DNA of 58,727 bases from Candidatus Woesearchaeota archaeon (GTDB taxonomy: Archaea; Nanobdellota; Nanobdellia; Pacearchaeales; GW2011-AR1): the NCBI GenBank assembly GCA_964443535.1, contig CAYUCQ010000001.1:1-58727 (forward strand), given 5' to 3'. Positions 3,104-58,471 of this stretch are shown in pieces. The notes beneath the pieces are model-generated. The model had not been told where the DNA came from. It searched no databases and saw nothing but the letters and a program-made list of their open reading frames with translations. The number at the start of each line of letters is the position of its first letter. Positions within the stretch are counted from its first letter, which is position 1. The position numbers were made by a program, and so were the translations under genes.

Positions 3104-3712
3104 ATGGCAAAGAAACTGAAAATTCTGGCAGCATCAGATTTGCACGGAGATTCACGCCAAGTCAAAAAACTGGCTGAAAGAGCAGAGAAAGAAAAAGTAG
3201 ATTTAGTCATACTTTGCGGAGATATAACTGGATTTGTTGAAACAAAAAACATCATAAAGCCATTCAAGGAAAAAAACAAGCACGTTCTTCTAATTCCAGG
3301 AAATTGGGATTCATTTGCAACAGCAGATTTCCTTGCAAATGTTTACGGAGTAAAAAATATTCACGGCTATTCTGTCCAATATGAAAACATAGGATTTTTT
3401 GGCGCAGGCGGAGCAGAAGGTCCTGGCCCTGGCAGAATAACTGAAAAAGAACTATTAGATACTCTTGAAAAAGCGCATCATGGAATAAAAAACATAGAAA
3501 AGAAAATAATGGTGACGCACATGCATCCTTCTCCAAGCATGTCTGAATTTTCAGGAATAAAAGGCAGTGAAGCAATAACAAAAGCAGTTAAAAAATTCAA
3601 GCCCGCTTTCCTCCTGCATGGCCATATCCATGAAGCCTCAGGCATTGAAGAAAAAATAGGCAATACAAAAATAATCAATGTCGGAAAAGAAGGCAAGATT
3701 ATTGAGATTTGA
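3104..3712 (+). CDS. calcineurin-like metallophosphoesterase
   Basis: Motifs SDLHGD, LCGDITG, GNWD, THMHP and GHIHE appear in canonical order. Confidence 0.8.
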   Translation: MAKKLKILAASDLHGDSRQVKKLAERAEKEKVDLVILCGDITGFVETKNIIKPFKEKNKHVLLIPGNWDSFATADFLANVYGVKNIHGYSVQYENIGFFGAGGAEGPGPGRITEKELLDTLEKAHHGIKNIEKKIMVTHMHPSPSMSEFSGIKGSEAITKAVKKFKPAFLLHGHIHEASGIEEKIGNTKIINVGKEGKIIEI

Positions 3713-3777
3713 ACTTTATCATAAATTTTGGTAAAGAACTTCGTCAGGTTTATAACATTTAATTCTATCATTAAATT

Positions 3778-4224
3778 ATGGGCAAAAATGATTTTGGTTT
3801 GTATATAGATGAAAATATTAGTAAAGGGCTTGCTGAGCATTTAAAAGAAGATCACAACTTAAATATAAAATGTGCAAAATCATTAGGTAAAAGCGGCCAT
3901 GCAGATTCAAGAGTTTTACAAGAAGCAAATAAATTAAATAGACTTCTTCTCACAAATGATGAAGATTTTATAAAAGACCATCATAAATTCCCATTTAAGA
4001 ATTTAGTCGGAATTATAAAAATAAATGAAAGCAAAGAATTTGATGCTTGTCAAGATATCGATGTTCTTTGTTCCCATAGATCATTGAAAGAAATTTATGG
4101 AAAGAAGATCATTATTTCTAAAAATAGAATAAAACTTCTATCTCAAAATAAAGAGGGTAGCATAAAAGAAGAGGATATTAAAGAAGGAGAATGCCCTTGT
4201 AAATTAAATCCAAATAAAAGATAA
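3778..4224 (+). CDS. PIN-like/Mut7-C-like (DUF5615-type) protein
   Basis: N-terminus LYIDENISKGLAEHL...GHADSRVLQEANKLNRLLLTNDEDF resembles the DUF5615 pattern (D-E-N ... D ... T-D-D-F). Confidence 0.4.
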   Translation: MGKNDFGLYIDENISKGLAEHLKEDHNLNIKCAKSLGKSGHADSRVLQEANKLNRLLLTNDEDFIKDHHKFPFKNLVGIIKINESKEFDACQDIDVLCSHRSLKEIYGKKIIISKNRIKLLSQNKEGSIKEEDIKEGECPCKLNPNKR

Positions 4225-4318
4225 TTATTGTTTATTCTAGAATATAGCATTCTCCTCGCAATCACAATAAAAACTATATACTTTTAAACCATAATTATAT
4301 TCTAGGAAACTCGCTAAA

Positions 4319-6601
4319 ATGCCGGTAAAAGATTTTATTCCAATACAGGATGCAAGGCTTACTATAGAAAAAGAAGTAAAGCCAAAGCTGACAACAAAAG
4401 AGCTGACAACTATAGAAAAGCCAGGCATTCCTGTTCCAGCGCTTCAGCTGATGCCGCAAAAAAAGAAAGCAAGAGTTAAAATTCAAAAGCCGAAAAAAGA
4501 GCCCAGTTCTATAATGGAGCCAAAAGCAGATTCAATATTAATAATAACAGAAAAGCCGCAGGCTGCTGAAAAAATAGCAAATGCAATCGGCCATCCAATA
4601 AGGCGCGTAGAAAACAGGGTTTCATATTACGAGCTTAATCGCGGCTCTGAAAAAATTATGGTTGCTTCAGCAGTAGGGCATTTATTCAATTTAACTTACA
4701 TTAAAGGGCAAAAAGGATGGCCTGTCTTTAATATTGAATGGACTCCTTCATTCTTGTCAAAGAGAGCAGAATTCACAAAATCATATCATGATGTTCTAAA
4801 GAAGCTCTCAAAAAAAGCAAAAGAAATAATAGTTGCAACAGACTATGACATAGAAGGCGAAGTAATAGGCTGGAATGTTGTAAGATTCATATGCGGAAAA
4901 GATTCTGCAAAAAGAATGAAATATTCAACTCTGACAAAAGATGAATTAGTAAGGTCTTATGAAAATCCCATGCCAGAATTAGACTGGGGACAAGCTTATG
5001 CAGGAGAAACACGCCATATTCTTGACTGGCTTTATGGAATAAATCTCTCAAGAGCATTGATGTCTTCAATAAAAAATCAAGGCTCATTTAAGATTCTCTC
5101 AATAGGTCGAGTCCAAGGCCCTGCATTGAAAATAATAGTTGACAAAGAAAGAGAAATAGACAATTTTAAATCAGTGCCTTTCTGGGAAGTATCTGCTTTC
5201 GTAAATTCAAAGGAGGGGGGAACCTTGGTGCCCCGGGAATATAAACATCCAAAAGACATATTTAACGAAAAAGAGCTGGAAAAATTCAAGGACATAAAAG
5301 AAGCTGATGCAGAAACAAAAAAAACAGAAGAATATCTTCCTCCTCCCCATCCATTTGATTTGACAACTCTACAAAGAGAAGCTTACAGGCTTCACAATAT
5401 AAGCCCTTCTCAAACTCTTACAGCAGCTCAAAAATTATACTTGGACAGCCTTATATCTTATCCAAGAACATCATCGCAAAAAATACCTCCTTCAATAGAA
5501 CCAAAAAAAATTCTTAAAGAATTAGAAAAGCATTTTCCGCAATATGCAAAACTTGCAACTAGAGCAAAGCCAATAGAAGGAAAAAAAGCAGACCCAGCTC
5601 ATCCATCAATTTATCCAACAGGCGAATTCAAAGCTCTTTCAGGCAATGAACAAAAACTTTACGAGCTAATAGTAAAGAGATTTATTTCTGTATTCTCTCC
5701 AGATGCAATAACTCATAATAAAAGAATAAAATTAACAGCAATAAAGAATAATGAAGAAATAATATTCACAAATTCAGGACTGAAAATAAAAGAAAAGGGC
5801 TGGACAAAAATATATCCTGCAATATTGCAGGAAAAAGATATCCCTGACTTAAACGGAAAAGTAAAAATAGATGAAATAAAGCATTTTAAAAAAGAGACAC
5901 AGCCCCCAAAAAGATTTACTCCAACATCACTAATAACATTAATGGAAAAAAAGAATCTTGGAACAAAAACAACTCGCAGCCTTATAATAGAAACTTTGTT
6001 TGACCGAGGTTATTTAGACGGAAAAAGCATAAAAGCAACAAAGCTCGGAATCAAGCTTATAGAGTCGTTAGAAAAATATTCTCCAATAATAATAGACGAA
6101 AATCTTACAAGAAAAATGGAAGAAGAAATGGATTCAATACTTTCTTCAAAAGAAAATCTTAAGGAAAAAGAAAAAGGCATAATAAGCAAGATAGAGCACA
6201 TAATAACAGATATTTCAAAAGAATTCAAGATAAAAGAAGCAGAAATAGGAAAAGCTCTTTTAGAAGGAATACAAGAGCACATAAAAGAAGAGCGCGAGAA
6301 TAACACCTTGATTCAATGCCCCACGTGTAAACAGGGAAATCTAAGAATACTTTATTCAAAAAAAACTAGAAGATCTTTTGTAGCTTGTTCTGCCTATCCA
6401 GAATGCAGACAGACTTACAATCTTCCGCCGAATGCACTCATAAAAAAATCAGGAAAAAACTGCGAAACATGCAATTATCCAAAACTCCTCTCAATAAAAA
6501 AAGCAAAACGCCCTTGGGAATTCTGCTTTAATCCAAATTGCCCAATAGTTATAAAAAGAAGAGAAGAATGGGAAGCCAAGAAATCTGCTCAAAATGTCTA
6601 A
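4319..6601 (+). CDS. topA: DNA topoisomerase, type IA
   Basis: Toprim motifs (LIITEKPQAAEKIA; ATDYDIEGEVIGWN), active-site Tyr motif ISYPRTSSQ, and two C-terminal Zn ribbons (CPTCKQ...CSAYPEC; CETCNYP...CFNPNCP). The true start may be the internal Met near 4514. Confidence 0.9.
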   Translation: MPVKDFIPIQDARLTIEKEVKPKLTTKELTTIEKPGIPVPALQLMPQKKKARVKIQKPKKEPSSIMEPKADSILIITEKPQAAEKIANAIGHPIRRVENRVSYYELNRGSEKIMVASAVGHLFNLTYIKGQKGWPVFNIEWTPSFLSKRAEFTKSYHDVLKKLSKKAKEIIVATDYDIEGEVIGWNVVRFICGKDSAKRMKYSTLTKDELVRSYENPMPELDWGQAYAGETRHILDWLYGINLSRALMSSIKNQGSFKILSIGRVQGPALKIIVDKEREIDNFKSVPFWEVSAFVNSKEGGTLVPREYKHPKDIFNEKELEKFKDIKEADAETKKTEEYLPPPHPFDLTTLQREAYRLHNISPSQTLTAAQKLYLDSLISYPRTSSQKIPPSIEPKKILKELEKHFPQYAKLATRAKPIEGKKADPAHPSIYPTGEFKALSGNEQKLYELIVKRFISVFSPDAITHNKRIKLTAIKNNEEIIFTNSGLKIKEKGWTKIYPAILQEKDIPDLNGKVKIDEIKHFKKETQPPKRFTPTSLITLMEKKNLGTKTTRSLIIETLFDRGYLDGKSIKATKLGIKLIESLEKYSPIIIDENLTRKMEEEMDSILSSKENLKEKEKGIISKIEHIITDISKEFKIKEAEIGKALLEGIQEHIKEERENNTLIQCPTCKQGNLRILYSKKTRRSFVACSAYPECRQTYNLPPNALIKKSGKNCETCNYPKLLSIKKAKRPWEFCFNPNCPIVIKRREEWEAKKSAQNV

Positions 6602-41498: not shown

Positions 41499-42800
41499 TT
41501 AAATATTTAGTTTCTCAATCTCTCTCGCAATAGAAAGCATTTTCGCCTCTTCTCCTTTGGCGCACATTATCTGCATTCCAACAGGAATTTCACTAACTCT
41601 CCCAGCAGGAATTGAAACTGCGCAAATTTCTGCCAGGTTCGCAGGAATAGTCAAAGCATCAGCAGCATAAACATCTTCTAATTTCATCTTCTTTCCTTCT
41701 CCAATTTTCCAAGGCAAAAAAGGAAGAGTTGGCATGATAAGGCAGTCAACTTTCTTCAAAATTTCAGAAAATTCTTCCTTGATAACTTCCTTGACTTCCA
41801 AAGCTTTTCTGTAATAAGCTCCTTTGAATTCTGCCTTAGTTATCTCACTTCCGCCTAAAATTCTTCTAAGAACTTCCTGTCCGCAATTATCTTCTATTTT
41901 TTTGCCATACTTCCGCCCATCAAATCTTCTTGTTGCAGAAAAAAACTCTGCATAAACTAAAGGATAATAAGTCTGCACAGCTAAATCAATATGCTTGACA
42001 TCAAATTCTTTTATATCAAACTTAAGCTCATTCTTAATTTCGCTAACTCTTTTTTCAATCAACACTCGCAAATTTTTATCAATATTCTTTAAATTAATAA
42101 TTCCAACTTTAGCCTTCTTTGAATCTTTTAATTCAATTTTCTTGGATTCAAAGGTTGTTGTATCTTTTTCGTCTTTTCCTCTGATAACGTCTAAAATTAA
42201 GCTCGCATCACTAACATTTTTTGCAATTGGCCCAATTTGATCCAAGCTCATGCTCAAATCAATCAGTCCGTAGCGGGAAACTAATCCATATGAGGGCTTT
42301 ATTCCTACAACTCCACAGCAAGAAGCAGGGCTTCTTATGCTTCCGCCTGTATCACTTCCTAAAGCTGCATCGCAAAAACCTGCTGCAACAGCAGCAGCAC
42401 TTCCACTGCTTGAGCCCCCACTAATTCGTCCAAAAGCCGCTGGATTTTGCGTAGCTCCAAAAGCACTATTTTCTCCGCTTGAGCCAGCTGCAAACTCATC
42501 CATGTTCGTCATTCCAATTATAATTCCATCTTCAGCCTTAATCCTAGAAATAACACTCGCGTCATAGGGCGCGCGATAATTTTCAAGAACTTTTGAAGCG
42601 CAATTGCAAATCATTCCTTTTACATTAATATTGCTCTTTACTGCAATTACATATCCATAAAGCCTGCCTTTTCCAGCTTTTTTGTCAAGCGCCCGCGCAT
42701 CATTCAAGGCATTTTCATTTAAATGCAAAAAAGCATTTACCTTCTTGTCTTCCCTTTTTATCTTATCCAAATATGCCTTGACCTTGTCTTCAACTCTCAT
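41499..42800 (-). CDS. gatA: amidase-family Glu/Asp-tRNA amidotransferase subunit A
   Basis: Amidase signature GGSSSGSAAAVAAG...GSDTGGSIRSPAS. ATG at 42800 (MRVEDKVKAYL) is preferred over the long ORF-track extension. Confidence 0.85.
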   Translation of the reverse strand: MRVEDKVKAYLDKIKREDKKVNAFLHLNENALNDARALDKKAGKGRLYGYVIAVKSNINVKGMICNCASKVLENYRAPYDASVISRIKAEDGIIIGMTNMDEFAAGSSGENSAFGATQNPAAFGRISGGSSSGSAAAVAAGFCDAALGSDTGGSIRSPASCCGVVGIKPSYGLVSRYGLIDLSMSLDQIGPIAKNVSDASLILDVIRGKDEKDTTTFESKKIELKDSKKAKVGIINLKNIDKNLRVLIEKRVSEIKNELKFDIKEFDVKHIDLAVQTYYPLVYAEFFSATRRFDGRKYGKKIEDNCGQEVLRRILGGSEITKAEFKGAYYRKALEVKEVIKEEFSEILKKVDCLIMPTLPFLPWKIGEGKKMKLEDVYAADALTIPANLAEICAVSIPAGRVSEIPVGMQIMCAKGEEAKMLSIAREIEKLNI

Positions 42801-42849
42801 ATAAAGCAAAGAAAATGCAGATTTATTAACTTTTACTATAACAAAAGAT

Positions 42850-43062
42850 TTGGAAGAATTAATTGGTTCAGAAAATATAGGTCTCGGAGAATCTAAAAAG
42901 ATAAGCAAAAAAAGAAAAGAAAGTGTAGAAGTAAAGCATTATGACCCTTTCTTCAAAAAACTGAAAATAGCTGCTTACAAAGGAGATATTAGTCAATATT
43001 TTTACCTAAAAGTCTATCCTGAAAAAAGAGAATACATTGAATCTATGCTAAAAGAGATTTAA
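42850..43062 (+). CDS. possible small hypothetical protein
   Basis: 70-aa TTG-initiated ORF in the gatA / VOC gap. No motif. Confidence 0.25.
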   Translation: MEELIGSENIGLGESKKISKKRKESVEVKHYDPFFKKLKIAAYKGDISQYFYLKVYPEKREYIESMLKEI

Positions 43063-45222: not shown

Positions 45223-45693
45223 TTATTTTCTGCTCTTCTCTCCAACTTTTTCTTCTGTATACTGCTTTAAAAATCTTATTATTTCTTCTTTAAATTTATC
45301 AAAATCATCCAATTCACCAATATTTTCAAAAACCCTTTCGTTATCAACTTTACCATATTTATGTACCAAAATATTTCTAAACCCCTTCATTTCAATCAAT
45401 ATATTCTTCATCCCCATAGATATTACTTTTTTATCTCTTAATTTATCAAATATTATGTCTTCATCGGAAGGTATCCCTAATTTTAAACCTGATATTATAA
45501 TGTTGCATATATCTATAACATTCTCTATTGAGATTTGCAATAATCTTTCACACGCTCTTTTCTTCTCAATAGAACCATTATATTCATCCAAATCCATTGG
45601 TTTTATTTTCTCTAATTCTTCTATATAATCATCTAACTCATCTAATTTAGAGAAGATTTTTTCCTTATCCAAATTTTTATTTCTCATTTTCAA
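45223..45693 (-). CDS. hepT: HEPN-domain toxin (HepT/DUF86)
   Basis: The R-x4-H motif context FRNILVHKYGKVD in a DUF86-sized protein. Overlaps the upstream MNT gene. Confidence 0.75.
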   Translation of the reverse strand: MKMRNKNLDKEKIFSKLDELDDYIEELEKIKPMDLDEYNGSIEKKRACERLLQISIENVIDICNIIISGLKLGIPSDEDIIFDKLRDKKVISMGMKNILIEMKGFRNILVHKYGKVDNERVFENIGELDDFDKFKEEIIRFLKQYTEEKVGEKSRK

Positions 45694-46105
45694 TTGCTTC
45701 CAAATACATTTTATACCCTTTCTCGTATAAATTAAACTCTTTTATAGTAAAAAAAGCAATTTCATACAAAAGTGGCTCATCTTTGCACAATATAATTTTT
45801 CCATCTTTTAGCACTCTCTTTCTAATATAAAGCGGAAGCTGTTGGAAAATATTCAAATCATATTTATCAGAGAGCAGGGATGAATATTTTATTCTCTTCT
45901 TAGACATCTCCAGATTAAGATATTTCTTGTCCAAGACAACGCAGATATCAATGTCTCTATGTTCTTCCCCCCTAGCATAGGAGCCAAAAACAAGCACGGC
46001 TATAACTTCTTTATCTTTCTCAAATTTATCCAAAATTTTTTTATTCAATATCCCCATATTTTTTAAAGAAAAAGCAAGTTTATTAGTCTTTTGATTATAA
46101 AACAA
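45677..46105 (-). CDS. mntA: minimal nucleotidyltransferase antitoxin (MntA)
   Basis: VLVFGSYARGEEHRDIDICVV (GS-x10-DxD). Confidence 0.8.
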   Translation of the reverse strand: MFYNQKTNKLAFSLKNMGILNKKILDKFEKDKEVIAVLVFGSYARGEEHRDIDICVVLDKKYLNLEMSKKRIKYSSLLSDKYDLNIFQQLPLYIRKRVLKDGKIILCKDEPLLYEIAFFTIKEFNLYEKGYKMYLEAIENEK

Positions 46106-46122
46106 TAAAAATTTATATGAAA

Positions 46123-46527
46123 CTATTTCTTAACGAATTCTACATTATCAAGATTTCTAAAGCCTTCATCCCCAGTCAAGAATTTAACTCCATGATTTTT
46201 TGCAGCAATATATCCTATAACATCGGGAATAGACAAATCCTTATGCTTTATCTTTAAATCCATCGCTTCCTCCAAATCATTTAAAGAAATATCAACTAAA
46301 AAATCAAAGTAATCTTCAGTATATTTATCTGCCTTTTCCTTGCTCATCTCTTTCTTTAAATTATAATTAAGTTCAGCAAGATTAAAAATTGCAGTAATAA
46401 TAGAAGATTTTGTATAAAAATTATATTTAGGATTTCCTCTTATAACCTCTATCATCGCATAAGTATCAAAGAAATATGTTTCTCTTTCTTCAACTGGTTT
46501 GTTTTCAGCCGCTATTGTTTCATTCAT
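46123..46527 (-). CDS. PIN-domain toxin
   Basis: YFFDTYAMIEVIRGN, E in FNLAELNYNL, IPDVIGYIAA and FLTGDEGF. Confidence 0.7.
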   Translation of the reverse strand: MNETIAAENKPVEERETYFFDTYAMIEVIRGNPKYNFYTKSSIITAIFNLAELNYNLKKEMSKEKADKYTEDYFDFLVDISLNDLEEAMDLKIKHKDLSIPDVIGYIAAKNHGVKFLTGDEGFRNLDNVEFVKK

Positions 46528-51461: not shown

Positions 51462-52513
51462 CTATTGAGTTGTATTCCATAAAATATCAATAATTTCTCT
51501 TTTTAATCGTTCTCTTAATTTATAACTCTCTGCCCAGACTGAATAAGCCTTCCATCCACGATAACTATAAAAAATATCTCCAAAGCCCATCTTGCCATCT
51601 CTATATAGTCCTATTTTTCTCTTCATATTCCTAATGTTTCTTTTTCTCAATAATTTCCATTTTTTATAATTTCTAAATCCTACAAAATCAATACCGCGGT
51701 AGATAGAAATAATTCTAGATTTATTAGGATGCAAACAGAGTTTTAATTTTTGGCTCAAGAAATTCTCAATTTCTATTTTCCAAGTTTTCAATTGCTTCAA
51801 AGAGTAATGCAAAATAACAAAATCATCAACATACCTAATATAATACTTAATCTTCAAAATATGTTTTACAAAATAATCTAACTCATTTAAATAGACATTA
51901 GCAAAAAATTGAGAAGTCAAATTGCCGAGAGGCATGCCTTTCAGAGTTACTCTCTCTCTCTCTGCCTTCCAAAGTTCGCATTATTCAAAATTCTTCTAAT
52001 CAATTGTATAATTTTTTCATCTTTTATTTTTTTACAAATAATCTCCATTAAAATATCATGATTAACTTCTTGAAAATAATGCTTAATATCTGCTTTTAAG
52101 CAAAATCCAGAATAAGTGAAATTACGAGTTACCTTTCTTCTAAATTCATCAAATCTTTGCAAAGCAAACAAATTGCCTTTATTTTTCTGATTTGCACAAG
52201 AATCGTAAATAAAGCTTTTTTCAAAGATTTTTCCTATGATATTAATTAGTGCGTGATGAACAATTCTGTCTCTAAAATCTGATTTTGAAATAACTCTTGT
52301 TTTAGGATCTCTTAAAACAAAGGTAGTTAATGGAAGAGGACTATAACTCATATTAATAAGTTCATTATGCAATTCAAGCAGATTCTTCTCAAGATTCTGC
52401 TCAAAGTCAATAATATCTTGTCTTTGAGTTTTACCTTCTCTTGCTTTCCTCCAAGCAATTACTAAATTACCCATAGAGCAAAAAATAGGATAAAGATTTT
52501 TGTAAGTTTCCAT
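51462..52513 (-). CDS. DGR-type reverse transcriptase, split into two ORFs (52513..51947 and 51935..51462) by a frameshift in an (AG)7 tract
   Basis: The N-terminal ORF carries RT motifs 1-3 (PKTRVISKSDFRDRIVHHAL; CLKADIKHYFQEVNH). The C-terminal ORF starts MPLGNLTSQFFANVYLNELD (DGR-RT-like GNLTSQ motif) and has YVDDFVIL plus a thumb. Removing one AG unit gives a continuous ~349-aa protein. Confidence 0.85.
51950..51963 (-). repeat. (AG)7 dinucleotide tract ((CT)7 on the plus strand) at the RT frameshift site
   Basis: Plus strand is CTCTCTCTCTCTCT. It lies inside the only ~34-nt window where both RT reading frames are open. Confidence 0.9.
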
Positions 52514-52537: not shown

Positions 52538-52622
52538 GCTATTCTGCCATTCTCATTCGAGTTAGCGAGGTTATCGTTGTTCGAGTTGAGATTAAGGTTG
52601 CTGTTCAAGTTCAACCTCGAAA
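52538..52622 (-). repeat. DGR template repeat (TR), 85 nt
   Basis: Aligns to VR 52960..53047. On the coding (minus) strand it is rich in AAC/AAT codons (LNLNSNLNLNSNNDNLANSNEN). Confidence 0.9.
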
Positions 52623-52820
52623 GGTATAGCCTATTGCTCTTCATATCACCATAACTTCAGTTTTCATATAATCAAAGAGATTAATATTCTATCAATTAAA
52701 TCTTCGCTATATTTACTATCTGTCATTATTGTATTTTATAACTATAAAGTCATAAGCAACAAGCGTGTAGCCCAATTATGTTCCAACATAATCAGGAATC
52801 TAACTAATAAGAATCTATTT

Positions 52821-53657
52821 TTATTCTTTTCCCTGCAATATTCTTAACGCTCTCTCTCTTCTCTCCAAGAGTTCGCTTTCTTGTCTTCCAAATTCTGCTT
52901 GAATTTCAGAGATATATCTGCCCAAAAAATTTTGCGAACTGGCTTCGCCACGAACTAACGCTACCCTGCCACTCCCACCCGAGCAAGCGAGGTAACCGCC
53001 GCCGTACGAGCCGAGATAAAGGCCGCAGTCCAAGCCCAACCCCGAAATTCCAGAATCTCTAGCATACCAAGTTCTACTTCCTTTTGTATCAAATAAAGGC
53101 AGACCTAATACATCTGTCTCTGTAAATTTTTTTCCATTCCATTTTCCATCAAGTCGTTCATCATAAACAACACTAAAATCATCTCTTGGAATAACTTTCC
53201 ATCCATATCCGGCTTTATCTTCAGATAAAGCAACATCTAATCCACTTATTAAAACAGGAAGCTTTAATTTTCCTTGTTTATTTTCAATATGAGGAATAAG
53301 TTCTTTAATAACTTCTTTATTTGGCGCATAACTATCTCTTTCACTTCTTAAAACAAGAGAAGGCGTATCAGAATAATGTTTATCTTTTACTATCTCCATA
53401 ATTTCAGGTCTGCTTAAATCAGCCAAGTTAGCAACTCTTATTCCTAAAGGTCTTAATATGCTGTCTACTCTTGCAGCAACAGGAAAATTGCTTCCCAACA
53501 TAGTCTTAGTTTTTTCATCATACCAAACATTTCCAAAACTCTTAACTTGTTCGTAAATACTTTTTGCGCCAGCCCCTTCTATAAAACTCTTAATAAATAT
53601 AGTTGGAACTCTCCAATTAAAATTTCCTTCTGCTTCAGTTTTAGTCTCTAAACTCAT
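52821..53657 (-). CDS. DGR target protein with C-terminal variable region (C-type-lectin-fold-like)
   Basis: 278 aa. The VR encodes SGLGLDCGLYLGSYGGGYLACSGGSGRVALVR, against TR-encoded SRLNLNSNLNLNSN-NDNLANSNENGRIAH. No signal peptide or TM seen. Confidence 0.8.
   Translation of the reverse strand: MSLETKTEAEGNFNWRVPTIFIKSFIEGAGAKSIYEQVKSFGNVWYDEKTKTMLGSNFPVAARVDSILRPLGIRVANLADLSRPEIMEIVKDKHYSDTPSLVLRSERDSYAPNKEVIKELIPHIENKQGKLKLPVLISGLDVALSEDKAGYGWKVIPRDDFSVVYDERLDGKWNGKKFTETDVLGLPLFDTKGSRTWYARDSGISGLGLDCGLYLGSYGGGYLACSGGSGRVALVRGEASSQNFLGRYISEIQAEFGRQESELLERRERALRILQGKE
52940..52950 (-). promoter_or_regulatory. small GC hairpin (TGGC-GAA-GCCA on the coding strand) 10 nt 3' of VR; candidate DGR homing-associated hairpin
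   Basis: Seen only next to VR, with no equivalent 3' of TR. The stem is only 4 bp, so this is weak. Confidence 0.3.
52960..53047 (-). repeat. DGR variable repeat (VR), 88 nt
   Basis: 23-24 mismatches to TR, all at TR adenines on the coding strand, plus one in-frame 3-nt insertion. Confidence 0.9.
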
Positions 53658-53744: not shown

Positions 53745-55193
53745 TTAAGTCTCAATAACTTTCTTGATAATCTCCATAGCTCTTTTCTTATCAACTTTGC
53801 CGCTAAATTTTGCTATAATCATTCCCATGTAAGCGTTTTCTCTTAATCCAGGCTTTTCCATTACAATTTTCCTGACTTCTTCTTCTAATTCATCATTTCC
53901 AGCTTTTTCAACTTTAACTGCCTCTTCAGCACTCTTGCCGTTTAAAATATCCCATAAAACTTCCCTGACATGCTCTTTATCCAGCTTTCCAGCGCAAACT
54001 CTCTCAAGCACGCTCTCCAAAATTCTCTCATTTAAAACGCCTTTAACCTCTTCAAAACTTTTCCCGCTCTTTTTCGCAAAATCATTTCTCCATAATGCAA
54101 TCATCTTGGCAATCAAATTAGCATCCTTATCATAAACATTCATTAATAAATTAAATTCTTCAAGCAGCTCGCTGTCAGCTAAGATTAAGTTGGACATCTC
54201 TTCACTTAGCCCTTTCTTTCTTAATTCGTCCCTAATATCTTGCTTTAATCTCGGCAGCTCTTTCTTTATCTTATTAATTTTCTCCCTGCCAATTTTCAGC
54301 AAAGGCAGATCTGTTTCAGGATACATTCTTGCGCCTCCTGGAATTGGCCTTAAGAATTCAGTTTTTCCATCAGGCAAAGCGTTTCTTACATTTCCATCTT
54401 TCTTGCTATTCTTCAAATCCTCAATCTGCCTTTCAATTTCCAATTCAGTTGTTTTTACCATTATTTTTGGCTCTTGAAATCCTTTTATCTCAACTCTATC
54501 ATGCCCTTTAATTGAAATATTCAAATCCTGTCTTATAGTCCCTATTCCTCTTTTTACACGGCAAGCTCTCAAAATCTCGCCTAATTTTAAGGCAGTTTCC
54601 TTTATCTGTTCAGGAGTTTTCAAGTCAGCATTTGTGCCTATTTCAACAAGAGGAGTTCCAAGCCTGTCAAGCCTGTAAATACTCTCTGCTCCATCCTTGC
54701 TTACTAATCTCGCAGAATCTTCCTCAATCATTATAGTTGCAATGCCTACTTTTCCAAAACTCATTTCAATATATCCATCATGCGCAATTAAAACAGTTCT
54801 CTGAAATCCAGAAGTATTGCTTCCGTCAATAACAGTTTTCCTCATGATTTGGCTAAAAGGATAAATCTCGCAATTCAAAAGAAGAGCAATTTTAATTGCT
54901 TCATCTAAAGCAGCTTCATCAATGAAGTGCGGCGGCTCTTCATCTAATTCAACCAAGCATGTGCTGTCAGAATATCCTTCATAAGCAAACTCTTTTCTTT
55001 TTGAAGCTTCATATTCAACAGCTGCATCAATCTCGCCTGACTCTCCTGCAACAGGATGCAGCCTTCTCCTCACAATAAAATGCGGCTTGTCACTCCTTAA
55101 AAAAGCAGGGCATCTGCAGAATAGCTTTCTTCCTGTATCAAGCTGCTGATGAATTTCTAATCCTGCTTTCATTCCTAATTTTGCATAGTCCAT
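53745..55193 (-). CDS. gatE: GatE-like (GatB/GatE family) tRNA amidotransferase subunit, short form lacking the AspRS-like insertion domain
   Basis: N-terminus MDYAKLGMKAGLEIHQQLDTGRKLFCRCP (GatE-type IHQQL), RQDLNISI, ARMYPETDLP and a YqeY-like tail. 482 aa. Confidence 0.75.
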   Translation of the reverse strand: MDYAKLGMKAGLEIHQQLDTGRKLFCRCPAFLRSDKPHFIVRRRLHPVAGESGEIDAAVEYEASKRKEFAYEGYSDSTCLVELDEEPPHFIDEAALDEAIKIALLLNCEIYPFSQIMRKTVIDGSNTSGFQRTVLIAHDGYIEMSFGKVGIATIMIEEDSARLVSKDGAESIYRLDRLGTPLVEIGTNADLKTPEQIKETALKLGEILRACRVKRGIGTIRQDLNISIKGHDRVEIKGFQEPKIMVKTTELEIERQIEDLKNSKKDGNVRNALPDGKTEFLRPIPGGARMYPETDLPLLKIGREKINKIKKELPRLKQDIRDELRKKGLSEEMSNLILADSELLEEFNLLMNVYDKDANLIAKMIALWRNDFAKKSGKSFEEVKGVLNERILESVLERVCAGKLDKEHVREVLWDILNGKSAEEAVKVEKAGNDELEEEVRKIVMEKPGLRENAYMGMIIAKFSGKVDKKRAMEIIKKVIET

Positions 55194-55237: not shown

Positions 55238-56101
55238 CTATCTCTTTTTAGTTCTGAAAAGAGGGAGAACTTTCTCTTGAAATAACTCAAGCATTTCTGG
55301 CGTGTTAAATGCCTCAAATAGCTGTGCTTTTTTATATTCGTGAACATTTCTTAATATATCATCAATAGCTGCTCCAGTAACATTTTCAAAATTAAAATTC
55401 TTTCCATTCACGCGCAAATTTTGGGCAACTTTAATCATTCTCCTAAGAGTAACGTATCTTTCAATTCCAATTTTATCAGGACTTATTTCCTGAAATTCAG
55501 GGTTGAAGTATTTCTCCATTCTTAATCCCTGTCTAAACGAATCATGGTATTTATGAATAACAATTCCTTCTTTTAGCCCATCATAAAAGTCGCTTTTATC
55601 TTGAACCAAGGTATCAGCTATATCTCCAGTCATATTCTTCGTGTGCAAAACAGGCAATCTCACAATATTTTTTTCTATGCCTAAAGAATTAACAAATTCA
55701 TCAACTTGAAAAGGATGCAAGTATTTTCCTCTATCCTTGTCAAATACTCCTAAAAGAAAAAATTTCTCCATATATTCAGGATTATAGCAAATATGGCCAA
55801 AACCATAATGAGTCCATTCTCCGCATAAAATTTTATCTTCAGGCAAGCTTTGCAATTCTGGAATAGAGTGAGCCCAATTAAAAAGATCGCGAAAATAAAA
55901 AGCACTCAAACCATTTGAAGTTAATCTACGAGCACGGCTATAAGGTGTGACAATGCCGTCTTCTTTTCTTATAGAACAATTTCCCCCATCAATCTTTTCG
56001 TATGCAAAAAGGCCACTATGAGCGCGCTCTGCTCCACTATATTCTTCAACATGCATAAACTTAAAATTTCCTTTAGTATTGCTTGCCATTTTCTCAATCA
56101 T
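55238..56101 (-). CDS. ATP-dependent RNA ligase-like nucleotidyltransferase (Rnl2/PF09414-like)
   Basis: Motif I YEKIDGGN (KxDG), motif III LCGEW, motif IV EGIVIH, and motif V-like MEKYFNPEF. Confidence 0.65.
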   Translation of the reverse strand: MIEKMASNTKGNFKFMHVEEYSGAERAHSGLFAYEKIDGGNCSIRKEDGIVTPYSRARRLTSNGLSAFYFRDLFNWAHSIPELQSLPEDKILCGEWTHYGFGHICYNPEYMEKFFLLGVFDKDRGKYLHPFQVDEFVNSLGIEKNIVRLPVLHTKNMTGDIADTLVQDKSDFYDGLKEGIVIHKYHDSFRQGLRMEKYFNPEFQEISPDKIGIERYVTLRRMIKVAQNLRVNGKNFNFENVTGAAIDDILRNVHEYKKAQLFEAFNTPEMLELFQEKVLPLFRTKKR

Positions 56102-56820
56102 ATATACTCCCTTGGATTAAATGCCTGAAGATAATCTCTATATGAAACTCCTTCGGGACGAGTAATAAAAGCATTTATTGGTCTGTAAATATGTGAATCA
56201 GGAGAAATTACTGCAGTTCTGTATGTTCCGCCAATAGCAGAAGGTACGTCTCCACTCTTTTCTTGACGAAGGCGAAACTCAAACAAAGATTTAACAGCCA
56301 ATTTAATCGCGCTGTTAACTAATTCCAAATCATTTTCAGAAATAGGGTCTTTTCCATTAACTTTTTTCCCGCCTTTTTTCCCGCCATTAACTTCTTCATG
56401 GAGAGATTTTATAATCTCTTGAAGCTTGTCAACTTCTACATGATAAGATTCGCTATAATGATAATCAAAATTTAGCTCTTCCAAAAGGCATTTAGATCCG
56501 TGATGATAACGTTCTGTGAGATCGCATATTTCTTTTCCTATTTCTGATCTTCCATTCTTTCTCCCCTTACAGCCATGTTCCATAACCTCATTATAGATGC
56601 CTCTGGTAAAAATAACATAATCTGCCATATTTCCAAGATTGCTAAAAAACTTTCCAGCTATTTTATGAGGTGCTTCACCAGACCTTTTTTGCTTAGCTAT
56701 TTCTTCAAGATCTATTAAAGTCCCAGTATCCACTATTAAAACAGGGATCTGTCCTGCACTTGGCTGAAAATAATTATGTATTACCTCGTATAGCTCGTTC
56801 TTGCTTTTCGCTTTACTCAT
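56098..56820 (-). CDS. PIN-like nuclease domain protein with Lys/Gly-rich insert
   Basis: Four acidic positions at PIN-like spacing: VLIVDTGTLID, IYNEVMEHG, ISENDLELVNSAIKLA and AVISPDSHI. Its stop overlaps the ligase ATG (ATGA). Confidence 0.45.
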   Translation of the reverse strand: MSKAKSKNELYEVIHNYFQPSAGQIPVLIVDTGTLIDLEEIAKQKRSGEAPHKIAGKFFSNLGNMADYVIFTRGIYNEVMEHGCKGRKNGRSEIGKEICDLTERYHHGSKCLLEELNFDYHYSESYHVEVDKLQEIIKSLHEEVNGGKKGGKKVNGKDPISENDLELVNSAIKLAVKSLFEFRLRQEKSGDVPSAIGGTYRTAVISPDSHIYRPINAFITRPEGVSYRDYLQAFNPREYI

Positions 56821-56952
56821 AAAAATACTCCTCTTTTCACATATTTAAATCTTTCTACATATAACTCCTAGATAGTTACAACAGAATCCTCATCATCTGC
56901 TATGCTGAACCATTTCCTTGCCATAATATAGTCACAATGAAACATAGCGCAA

Positions 56953-57171
56953 TTATCTTAATCTTTTAATTAATTCTTCTCTGATAATTTTTTTCTTTTC
57001 ATCAGATAAAGAAAACAAAAATTTCTTAGCCATTTTTTCAGATATTTTCCATTCTTCATCCTCTTTATTATCCCAAAGCTCTTTCATTTTTTCCTTTTGT
57101 ATCTTATGTAAAAATTCATCATATTGATTTCTCTTTTTAGCGCCTAAATAAATAGATATCACCTCTTCCAA
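56953..57171 (-). CDS. small charged hypothetical protein
   Basis: 72-aa ORF, 25 nt downstream of gatD. Confidence 0.35.
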   Translation of the reverse strand: MEEVISIYLGAKKRNQYDEFLHKIQKEKMKELWDNKEDEEWKISEKMAKKFLFSLSDEKKKIIREELIKRLR

Positions 57172-57196: not shown

Positions 57197-58471
57197 CTAA
57201 ACGCCCAATCTCTCGCTAATCTCCCCAGAAAAATTCTCAAGCATTTTTTCTTTAACTTTTCCAATCCATCCTCTATGCCCCATTACCCATCCTAATTTTA
57301 CAAGTGCTGTCTCACTAAGCATATCTTCAAGGAAAATTACACCTGCATCAACAAGCTCTCTTCCATTAGAATAAACATAAGGATCAAGCCTGCCAAAAAT
57401 TGTCTGGCTGGCAGCACATACTGCAAATCCTTCTCTAATATGCTTCTTCAGCTTTGCAATCCAGCTATGGCTTGCCTCGCTTGGCGCAAGATGCCCAAGC
57501 CCTGCTGCCTCAACAATCACTCCTTTGTATTTTAAGGCATAATAATCAAGTATGTCTGCACTCTGCCCAGGATAATATTTTACCAAAGCAATTTTATCAT
57601 TAAAAGCAACATCTAATTCAACTCTTTTCTTCTCATCTCTCTTATTATAATCTCCAATAAATTCAACCTTGTCTTTCCAAACTTTTGCAATTTCTGCAGA
57701 ATTAACTGGTTTGAAAGCATCTCTTCTTGAGCTGTGCATTTTCCTTGTCTTTGTCCCGCTCATTGCATAGCAAAAATCATCATTAATTGAAGCATGTCCT
57801 ACAATAAAAACTCCAGAGCAATCAGTTAAAGCCATTCTTGCTGCGCACTGCAAGTTCAAATTAGCATCACTGCTTGCTCTGTCAATGCTTTTTTGAGAAT
57901 ATGTCAAAACAACAGGCTTGCCTAAATTTCTCAAAAAAAAGCTCAAGGCTGCAGCAGTATAGCTCAAAAAATCAGTCCCATGAGTCACAATAATTCCTCT
58001 AATGTCTTTGTCATTAAGCATCTTTTCAGCACTTTCAGCTATCTTGACCCAATGCTCGCTTGTCATTGACTCAGAAGCAATCATAAAAGGCACATCTATC
58101 TTTTTCACATTTGCAATATTAAAAATTTCAGGATAAAATTTTGCAAACTCTCCAATTTCTGCCAAATGCTTGACTCCTCCTGTCCTTGAATCTAATTTAG
58201 ACGCAATAGTTCCTCCTGTTATAATCAACCCAATGCTCTGCAAGCCTTCTTTGTTCTCAAGTTTAAGGCTCTCTTTATCATCTTCCTTAAACTTCTTCAA
58301 AACTCTTCCTGCAAGAATATTCTCTCTAGGAATTCCTATATTATATCCCGAATCCAATTTTATAAACAAGATGCTAGATTCAGAACTCTCCAAAACCACG
58401 CCATCTAATTCTTCCTTAGCCAGCCTTAATCTAACTCTATCTCCAACATCAAAATTCAGTTCAGCCATCAA
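57197..58471 (-). CDS. gatD: Glu-tRNA(Gln) amidotransferase subunit D (asparaginase-like)
   Basis: An N-terminal GDRVRL beta-domain, plus asparaginase motifs ITGGTIAS and VTHGTD. Confidence 0.88.
   Translation of the reverse strand: MMAELNFDVGDRVRLRLAKEELDGVVLESSESSILFIKLDSGYNIGIPRENILAGRVLKKFKEDDKESLKLENKEGLQSIGLIITGGTIASKLDSRTGGVKHLAEIGEFAKFYPEIFNIANVKKIDVPFMIASESMTSEHWVKIAESAEKMLNDKDIRGIIVTHGTDFLSYTAAALSFFLRNLGKPVVLTYSQKSIDRASSDANLNLQCAARMALTDCSGVFIVGHASINDDFCYAMSGTKTRKMHSSRRDAFKPVNSAEIAKVWKDKVEFIGDYNKRDEKKRVELDVAFNDKIALVKYYPGQSADILDYYALKYKGVIVEAAGLGHLAPSEASHSWIAKLKKHIREGFAVCAASQTIFGRLDPYVYSNGRELVDAGVIFLEDMLSETALVKLGWVMGHRGWIGKVKEKMLENFSGEISERLGV

Follow-up and report, generated by a model that had tools for sequence, protein, structure and literature searches.

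A predicted HARP-like nuclease coupled to an Rnl2-like RNA ligase in front of gatE in Woesearchaeota

HARP, its ligase partner and the gatE locus

HARP is a minimal protein-only RNase P, an enzyme that removes the 5′ leader from pre-tRNA, and its spike-helix domain contacts the tRNA elbow. HARPs form dimers through a helical hairpin, and a tetramer or larger assembly is required for activity. Here, a 58,727-nt stretch of DNA from a Candidatus Woesearchaeota archaeon (contig CAYUCQ010000001.1, positions 1 to 58,727; “the window” below means this whole stretch) is described, in which a gene for a predicted HARP-like nuclease overlaps a gene for an ATP-dependent RNA ligase, just ahead of the amidotransferase gene gatE. 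With confidence about evenly balanced, the pair is read as a coupled cut-and-join module that acts on structured RNA and is organized as a conserved Woesearchaeota two-gene operon.

The co-occurrence of HARP, or PIN_5 (PF08745), with RNA ligase, tRNA methyltransferase and tRNA synthetase genes was noted in a survey of PIN-like domains (Matelska et al. 2017, PMC5499597). The same work placed HARP/PIN_5 in the VapC structural group, counted about 20% of PIN-like proteins as toxin–antitoxin (TA) toxins and referred to a nuclease-plus-RNA-ligase conflict system proposed for PIN_3. A more recent survey found the ligase Rnl3 in 89% of 751 HARP-positive genomes, no more than 5 kb from HARP in a third of the archaeal and 80% of the bacterial cases (Seshadri & Gopalan, mBio 2025, PMC12153264). 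The two genes are mostly divergent and were co-linear in only 10 archaeal cases and one bacterial case. The hosts are mainly halophiles, thermophiles and methanogens; DPANN lineages are not listed. HARP and Rnl3 were proposed to be functional partners in 5′ processing followed by C/D-box RNA circularization, in the removal of adenylylated leaders, or in repair, while a TA pair was discussed and ranked less likely (PMC12153264).

The window locus resembles this arrangement in that a PIN_5-type nuclease gene lies beside a gene for an ATP-dependent RNA ligase of the PF09414 superfamily. It differs in that the ligase lacks an N-terminal dimerization domain and appears to have an Rnl2-like C-terminal domain, both genes invariably point the same way with frames that abut or overlap, their site ahead of gatE is constant, and the host belongs to a different phylum. 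Since the window genes match none of the Pfam and TIGRFAM models used in the 2025 survey, the locus would be invisible to it. An initial interpretation made from the letters of the window alone (the sequence-only reading) did not recognize the pairing as a described system, but the pairing itself is known. The novelty lies in a HARP-like family that had gone unrecognized, in another class of ligase, in the strict coupling of two genes that run in one direction and in the DPANN host.

The locus comprises five co-oriented reading frames on the minus strand, all of which were found where the sequence-only reading had placed them:

57197–58471, minus strand: gatD, 424 amino acids (aa), NCBIfam equivalog PRK04183, 430 bits
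56953–57171, minus strand: Lys/Glu-rich open reading frame (ORF) of 72 aa with a TTG start
56842–56849, minus strand: TATA-like element TTTAAATA, 22–29 nt 5′ of the nuclease ATG
56098–56820, minus strand: gene for a predicted 240-aa HARP-like PIN-domain metallonuclease
56098–56101, minus strand: ATGA overlap of the nuclease stop and the ligase start
55238–56101, minus strand: gene for a 287-aa ATP-dependent RNA ligase with Rnl2-like architecture
53745–55193, minus strand: gatE, 482 aa, a short form, NCBIfam equivalog PRK04028, 469.5 bits

The junction of the nuclease and ligase genes reads ...GAG TAT ATATGATTGAG, with the 4 nt ATGA shared between the two frames, as had been reported earlier; the overlap suggests that the two genes are translationally coupled. 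gatE begins 44 nt past the ligase stop. The GC content is even over the gatD–gatE region, which therefore bears no mark of recent insertion.

Twelve other distinct loci were compared with the window: L001, L004, L007, L008, L009, L011, L013, L070, L071, L072, L073 and the P0038 contig. The nuclease gene must have a promoter directly upstream in L009 and L072, where the preceding gene sits on the opposite strand. In the window, the element TTTAAATA may serve as the pair's own promoter, perhaps including gatE, with the caution that the genome is AT-rich.

The nuclease and the ligase

The window nuclease has no match in Pfam, where no curated PIN model finds it, nor in NCBIfam, PHROGs, PADLOC or PDB sequences; de novo helical bundles that aligned with its hairpin region in the PDB were treated as compositional noise. 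Its family is small: a search of 1.84 billion proteins gave 19 clusters at the 50% identity level. Across 15–23 homologues, E78, K152, K153, D158, S161, D164, D208 and H210 are invariant and D31, E39, H82, E93 and S206 nearly so. The acidic residues D31, E78, D158, D164 and D208 are kept, or nearly so, down to 22% identity, and these are the predicted catalytic residues. When members were scanned individually, PIN_12 was matched by 7 of 23 (best E 0.004) and PIN_5, PIN_9 and DUF4411 by one of 23 each, all under the gathering score.

An AlphaFold2 (AF2) model of the protein (predicted local distance difference test score, pLDDT, 87; predicted template modelling score, pTM, 0.86) has a four-stranded α/β core with strands at 25–30, 68–70, 200–205 and 231–234 and flanking helices. 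Between the second and third acidic motifs, it carries a hairpin of two helices (96–122 and 124–144), and an additional helix specific to the family spans about residues 176–201. HARPs share this general topology, with four strands, six helices in the core and, as an insertion, a “spike-helix” domain of two helices, which in Hhal2243 lies between the second and third acidic motifs (PMC8266387). In a Foldseek search of the PDB with the model, HARPs ranked first (7e8k, E 0.17) and fourth (8kda), with template modelling (TM) scores of 0.3–0.4. An hmmsearch of the PDB also recovered a HARP, 7e8j, as the top match for the N-terminal part of the family profile, and HARPs were the only PIN-type proteins found in the PDB by fold and sequence searches with this family, although none of these PDB matches reaches significance.

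None of the 23 members reaches the PF08745 gathering threshold, the best single one having an E of 0.067. For a reference set of HARPs proper, 54 HARP loci from metagenomes yielded 44 full-length ORFs that were aligned, and three of these that were checked scored 164–223 bits against PF08745. Comparison of the full nuclease family profile with the 44 HARPs by hhalign gave a probability of 77% (P 2e-5), and the N-terminal part of the profile alone gave 91% (P 1.2e-6). After removal of the 26-residue family-specific insertion, a post-hoc edit, the probability was 93% (P 3.3e-7) and the alignment was collinear over nuclease residues 21–218. In this insertion-free alignment, the HARP motifs VLDTS, PPGIYxE, DSKED and SAD coincide with D31, E78, S161/D164 and D208, with D164 on the second D of DSKED and D158 lying 2–3 residues off the first. 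Single HARPs gave a median P of 3e-4 against the nuclease profile, with P < 1e-3 in 29 of 44. Reversed HARP profiles used as controls reached P 0.1–0.2, and three canonical VapC-type PINs from the window and L001 P 0.12–0.5, which makes the similarity a HARP-specific one and not a resemblance to PIN domains in general.

The likeness extends to several other features. Both are small single-domain proteins with a four-stranded PIN-like core, modelled in the case of the window nuclease, and its hairpin is predicted to be inserted at the same point of the fold as the spike-helix domain, being collinear with it in hhalign. The acidic residues occupy the positions of the four catalytic Asp, which in the HARP Aq880 are D7, D138, D142 and D161 (PMC8266387), and the first-to-third acidic spacing is 127 residues in the window nuclease compared with 131 in Aq880. 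The shared motifs can be written as DTS, P-x-GI[YL]-x-E, S-x-x-D-[LFW]-x-L and [VL]S-x-D, and both families are linked genomically to an RNA ligase and to tRNA-related genes. However, identity to HARP is only about 20%, and the PF08745 threshold is not reached. At its N-terminus, the window nuclease is extended by 24 residues that add a helix, and its further helix of ~26 residues sits between the third and fourth acidic motifs. An invariant KK(x3-5)DPIS as well as H82 and H210 are absent from HARP, whereas the HARP motifs KGLRxAE and YRxALR are absent from the window family. Furthermore, the family comes from DPANN Woesearchaeota in non-extreme metagenomes and not from thermophiles or halophiles.

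The conserved acidic residues, the modelled fold and the HARP-specific profile similarity support a prediction that the 240-aa protein is a PIN-like metallonuclease with a core of the two-metal-ion kind. It is filed as a previously unclassified HARP-like sister family and not as HARP itself. The sequence-only reading had thus been right about a PIN-like fold with spaced acidic residues, but the protein is specifically HARP-like and not a generic PIN.

The protein could instead be non-catalytic, acting as a tRNA-binding or scaffold factor for the ligase or for the short GatE, with a likeness to HARP that is structural only. The missing matches to curated nuclease families would fit this, as would the lack of an insertion domain in the window GatE, and some recombinant HARPs leave pre-tRNA uncut (PMC12153264). 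However, the four acidic positions aligned with the HARP Asp residues, along with their Ser and His neighbours, are invariant or nearly so down to 22–28% identity, which is the pattern expected of an active site and not of a scaffold. A non-catalytic role is therefore considered hardly probable.

The ligase is easier to classify. It matches the Pfam RNA_ligase family PF09414 over residues 34–188 (45.1 bits, above the cutoff of 27; E 1.6e-11) and the PHROG phrog_548, “RNA ligase”, over residues 19–278; ligases of clade B, one of the two deep clades described below, score 73 bits against PF09414. In the AF2 model (pLDDT 82), residues 212–282 form helices. Foldseek placed T4 Rnl2 (2hvr/2hvq) first with E 2.5e-8 over 336–337 columns and a TM of 0.47, followed by Naegleria NgrRnl, archaeal Rnl3 and fungal Trl1, with Rnl2, NgrRnl and Rnl3 between E 1e-8 and 1e-5.

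The motifs in the window protein are EK36IDGGN (I), CGE95W (III), E178GIVIHK (IV) and RMEK197 (V). Scored over eleven close homologues and three second-clade members, the patterns EK36[IL]DGGNC, SR, GE95W, FxxxxxxD, KEG[IV]V[IV] and K197 (motifs I, Ia, III, IIIa, IV and V) do not vary, including those that the sequence-only reading had picked out, and this constancy extends over 10 loci from both clades. An hhalign comparison with the T4 Rnl2 sequence put K36 on the nucleophile K35, the adenylylatable Lys anticipated earlier, aligned motifs III, IIIa, IV and V, and extended into the C-terminal helical domain (“YVTLxR...DIL”, P 0.0016). Its sequence identifies the 287-aa protein as an ATP-dependent RNA ligase whose active site is intact and whose ligase activity is predicted.

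T4 Rnl2 is the best full-length Foldseek match of the ligase. Both proteins have a Lys nucleophile near the N-terminus and carry motifs I, III, IIIa, IV and V in one order, and the helices modelled in the C-terminal part of the window ligase may correspond to the all-helical domain of Rnl2. The window ligase differs in being shorter (287 aa versus 334), in having R-M-E-K instead of K-x-K at motif V, in a similarity below HMMER detection against the PDB, and in residing in a cellular archaeal host with an operonic nuclease partner. An Rnl3 type was ruled out: NCBIfam TIGR01209 gave no match at E ≤ 1, and Pfam gave PF09414 alone and no PF18330. The nucleophile is already at residue 36, so there is no N-terminal domain before the nucleotidyltransferase domain, and Rnl3 structures match the protein in Foldseek through the shared nucleotidyltransferase fold only.

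Conservation of the pair and its proposed function

Nuclease followed by ligase on the same strand was verified with hidden Markov models in 11 of the 12 other loci, down to 27–36% identity. The P0038 contig has the same gene order, read from gene order only, with a truncated upstream ORF, and in L011 the ligase is cut off at the contig end. According to the gene calls, the frames abut with a gap of 0 nt in L001, L004, L009 and L072, overlap by 4 nt in L007, 8 nt in L013 and 32 nt in L070 and L011, and are separated by 1 nt in L008 and L073 and by 25 nt in L071. Searches begun from the ligase alone always met the nuclease upstream. The arrangement is far beyond chance. The sequence-only reading had named three outcomes that would speak against it, namely a non-nuclease fold, a ligase without the adenylylatable Lys and a pair that is nowhere else conserved; what was found is a modelled PIN-like fold, a Lys aligned with the Rnl2 nucleophile, and the two genes as neighbours at every related locus examined.

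Among the 11 other loci with a visible downstream gene, 10 have gatE 3′ of the ligase, nine of them directly. In L004, a free-standing LAGLIDADG_3 gene (383 aa) intervenes between ligase and gatE (interval 3576–4727). L008 is without gatDE and has genes for adenylate kinase and a Dus tRNA-dihydrouridine synthase close by. gatD is found upstream in L001, L007, L009, L011, L070 and L073 and not in L004, L072 or L008. The genes between gatD and the nuclease vary: a GNAT acetyltransferase, a GT4 glycosyltransferase with DUF1003, or unrelated ORFs of ~72 aa; the upstream neighbour of the nuclease in other loci is GNAT, DUF1003, an epimerase, MgtE or gatD. The stable unit is nuclease–ligase–gatE, with a variable gatD side. 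The earlier description of an insertion between gatD and gatE is thus too simple.

Variable-gene hot spots were seen around the pair at 5468–5899 in L001, 3619–5161 in L009, 3576–4727 in L004 and 2487–2708 in L007.

Nor does the 72-aa ORF belong to the conserved unit. It has no family match in Pfam, NCBIfam, PHROGs or PADLOC and no BLASTP counterpart among the related loci, and it does not resemble the ORF of 73 aa that fills its slot in L007. For want of conservation, it was rejected as an antitoxin or third component. It is probably outside the module and may not be a gene at all.

Beyond these loci, few relatives were found. A profile search of genome contigs with the ligase alignment returned only two contigs from metagenome-assembled genomes of Woesearchaeota. 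Scans of viral contigs with the ligase family and a HARP fragment gave no relatives, a plasmid collection yielded no HARP, and neither protein matches PADLOC at E ≤ 1. The 1.5-kb flanks of the 54 HARP loci contained no ligase related to that of the window, a comparison that is uninformative given the short flanks and the distance to Rnl3. Separately, P0043, a protein of 453 aa predicted from a metagenome contig of 2 kb, is 57% identical to half of the ligase but is annotated as PF00122 (P-type ATPase), which probably reflects a chimera made during gene calling or assembly.

Hydrolysis by PIN, HARP and RNase P enzymes leaves 5′-phosphate and 3′-OH ends, and the Rnl2 and Rnl3 ligases need exactly these ends. 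By comparison, the canonical archaeal splicing route through EndA and RtcB runs via a 2′,3′-cyclic phosphate and a 5′-OH. In the proposed mechanism, the nuclease would hydrolyse a structured RNA, either a tRNA precursor or another small RNA, to give 5′-phosphate and 3′-OH ends. The ligase would be adenylylated on Lys36 and would then join the 3′-OH to the 5′-phosphate, either resealing the cut or circularizing or joining the processed product. The pair would be expressed beside gatE, and probably together with it, among tRNA-related housekeeping genes. The arrangement of the genes, the families they belong to and the conservation of both catalytic residues and synteny are observed directly; the nuclease activity, the end chemistry, a common RNA for the two enzymes and the identity of that RNA are inferred, and tRNA as the substrate is suggested by gene context. 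It is the matching end chemistry, together with the conserved active sites and the obligatory gene coupling, that favours coupled cutting and joining.

The two proteins might instead be independent enzymes that share an operon: an endonuclease for tRNA or pre-tRNA, possibly an RNase P, and a ligase for general repair or circularization. Parallel selection was conceded as a possible cause of the HARP–ligase co-occurrence (PMC12153264), DPANN operons are often of mixed function, and the neighbourhood is generally related to translation. However, the frames abut or overlap at every locus examined, in two clades that are only ~30% identical, and the pairwise identities of nuclease and ligase co-vary (r = 0.81). 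In addition, the nuclease family is tied to a different class of RNA ligase in unrelated lineages, and survival of the pairing through a swap of Rnl3 for an Rnl2-like ligase argues that 3′-OH/5′-phosphate ligation chemistry itself is needed by the nuclease. Independence is therefore considered unlikely.

The rate of divergence bears on a second alternative. Identity to the window proteins is 27–68% for the nuclease and 30–67% for the ligase, compared with 68–79% for GatE and GatD. The pair forms two deep clades, ~30% identical, that occupy the same gatD–gatE slot (L070, L071, L011 and L008 versus the window), whereas the GatD and GatE of the other-clade genomes are ~70% identical to those of the window. 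This could result from either very fast evolution or replacement in place by a distant homologue. Such a pattern would suit a toxin with an enzymatic antidote, or a conflict module, in which the nuclease cuts tRNA or rRNA and the ligase reseals it, for addiction or abortive infection. The tight overlap of the two genes points the same way, as do the surrounding variable islands with VapBC-like genes, the LAGLIDADG gene and a reverse-transcriptase element. So do the published points already mentioned: the VapC structural group with its many TA toxins, the PIN_3 nuclease–ligase proposal, and the TA reading discussed for HARP and its ligase.

The pair does resemble VapBC in consisting of two tightly coupled genes, one of them for a PIN-superfamily nuclease from the VapC structural group. 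It differs in that the partner is an enzyme with no antitoxin-type gene present, in a nuclease that is ~110 residues larger with inserted helices, in being neither mobile nor multi-copy, and in the lack of profile similarity to canonical VapC PINs noted above. No gene for a DNA-binding antitoxin-like partner is present, and the nuclease gene comes first. There is no PADLOC match and there are no viral-contig relatives; instead of a patchy or mobile distribution, the pair holds one syntenic chromosomal site before gatE in nearly all genomes, a housekeeping position. The true TA genes of the window, of ~130 aa, are readily found by Pfam. Finally, a Thermococcus knockout of the ligase in a canonical HARP/Rnl3 organism had no growth defect (PMC12153264). 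The toxin with an enzymatic antidote, one of the possibilities raised by the sequence-only reading, thus finds little support and is likewise considered unlikely.

Several points weigh against the coupled cut-and-join reading. No curated PIN model, PF08745 included, is reached at threshold by the nuclease family, the Foldseek matches to HARP are insignificant, the best hhalign value was reached only after a post-hoc deletion, and the C-terminal half, taken by itself, aligns weakly to HARP (P 0.016 to 0.0014). The pair diverges far faster than GatD and GatE and has two deep clades in one slot, a pattern commoner in conflict systems than in core RNA processing. Adjacency could reflect co-regulation only. 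TATA-like elements also lie 5′ of gatE and of the 72-aa ORF, so that co-transcription with gatE is unproven. A joint function is hypothetical even for canonical HARP and Rnl3.

A further point comes from two tRNA genes:

638–729 of the window, plus strand: intron-containing tRNA, called by Rfam and missed by ARAGORN
1848–1961 of L008, minus strand: tRNA with a TATA-like element upstream

The window tRNA appears to be a tRNA-Lys(CUU) whose intron measures about 20 nt. In both cases, a TATA-like box (TTTTTTAAA in the window and CTTTAAAAG in L008) ends exactly 23 nt 5′ of the mature +1. In Nanoarchaeum, the same TATA-to-+1 arrangement makes tRNA transcripts leaderless. By analogy with Nanoarchaeum equitans, the spacing suggests leaderless transcripts here too, although two genes from two organisms are anecdotal; it hints at tRNAs that would need no RNase P-type cut. 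When the window and nine related loci were scanned with Rfam, neither RNase P RNA nor another noncoding RNA turned up beside the module, in a stretch of sequence far too small to judge whether the genomes lack RNase P RNA.

Surroundings of the pair and wider bearing

The window is chromosomal DNA, with genes for topoisomerase, MCM, FtsZ, aRF1 and ribosomal protein L15e. It also encodes MetRS, a second class-I tRNA synthetase of the Ile/Leu/Val type, AspRS, TGT and an MnmA-like enzyme; genes for ProRS, AspRS and TGT lie near the nuclease–ligase pair. Other features include the following:

52821–53657, minus strand: 278-aa ORF between the RT-16 RNA and gatE, Gly/Ser-rich near its C-terminus
52621–52796, minus strand: Rfam RT-16 RNA (RF03019), 78 bits, directly 5′ of the reverse-transcriptase gene
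51947–52513 (188 aa) and 51462–51935 (157 aa), minus strand: reverse transcriptase in two ORFs, the N- and C-terminal halves of PF00078
50811–51203, minus strand: second PF01850 PIN protein, adjoining the reverse-transcriptase element
46123–46527, minus strand: PF01850 PIN protein, a canonical TA gene
45223–45693, minus strand: HepT-like RNase, overlapping an MNT-type nucleotidyltransferase at 45677–46105
41499–42908, minus strand: Amidase-family (GatA-like) gene, 469 aa, 11 kb from gatE

The reverse-transcriptase element fills the variable slot between gatE and TGT, where L001 has a PIN_2/RHH toxin–antitoxin pair. Its split gene is either frameshifted or interrupted by a stop, or else recoded. 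For the 278-aa ORF, searches of Pfam, NCBIfam, PHROGs and PADLOC gave no match; the related loci lack a counterpart of it, and it may be part of the element. The TA genes of the window served as negative controls in the HARP comparison.

GatE has 482–485 aa in the window, L001, L004, L009 and L072, whereas the NCBIfam model has about 630. The alignment to this model is interrupted after residue 260 (model position 264), and about 135–140 residues are missing, presumably the AspRS-like insertion domain that is typical of archaeal GatE. The short GatE is found in all relatives that carry the nuclease–ligase pair. The GatA-like gene raises the possibility of GatCAB-type components beside GatDE, and the organism may thus have components of both amidotransferases.

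The locus represents a second, independent version of the HARP–RNA ligase partnership, and a tighter one, with overlapping frames and fixed synteny. It involves a nuclease family too divergent for Pfam-based surveys, a different ligase class and a different archaeal superphylum. With 527 codons in total, the two genes make a compact test system. HARP-like enzymes are hereby extended to DPANN archaea, in which tRNA processing is poorly understood, and the pair bears on the role of HARP in organisms that also have an RNA-based RNase P and on why it keeps company with a ligase.

A more far-reaching possibility, and a decidedly doubtful one, is that the pair constitutes a dedicated pathway of 5′-phosphate/3′-OH cutting and joining in these reduced DPANN archaea, orthogonal to EndA/RtcB and essential for the maturation of tRNA or small RNAs, for example through protein-only RNase P-type processing combined with circularization or exon joining. 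If true, this would account for the pair being tied so firmly to the gatE operon, and it would reveal the long-sought function of the HARP–RNA ligase partnership.

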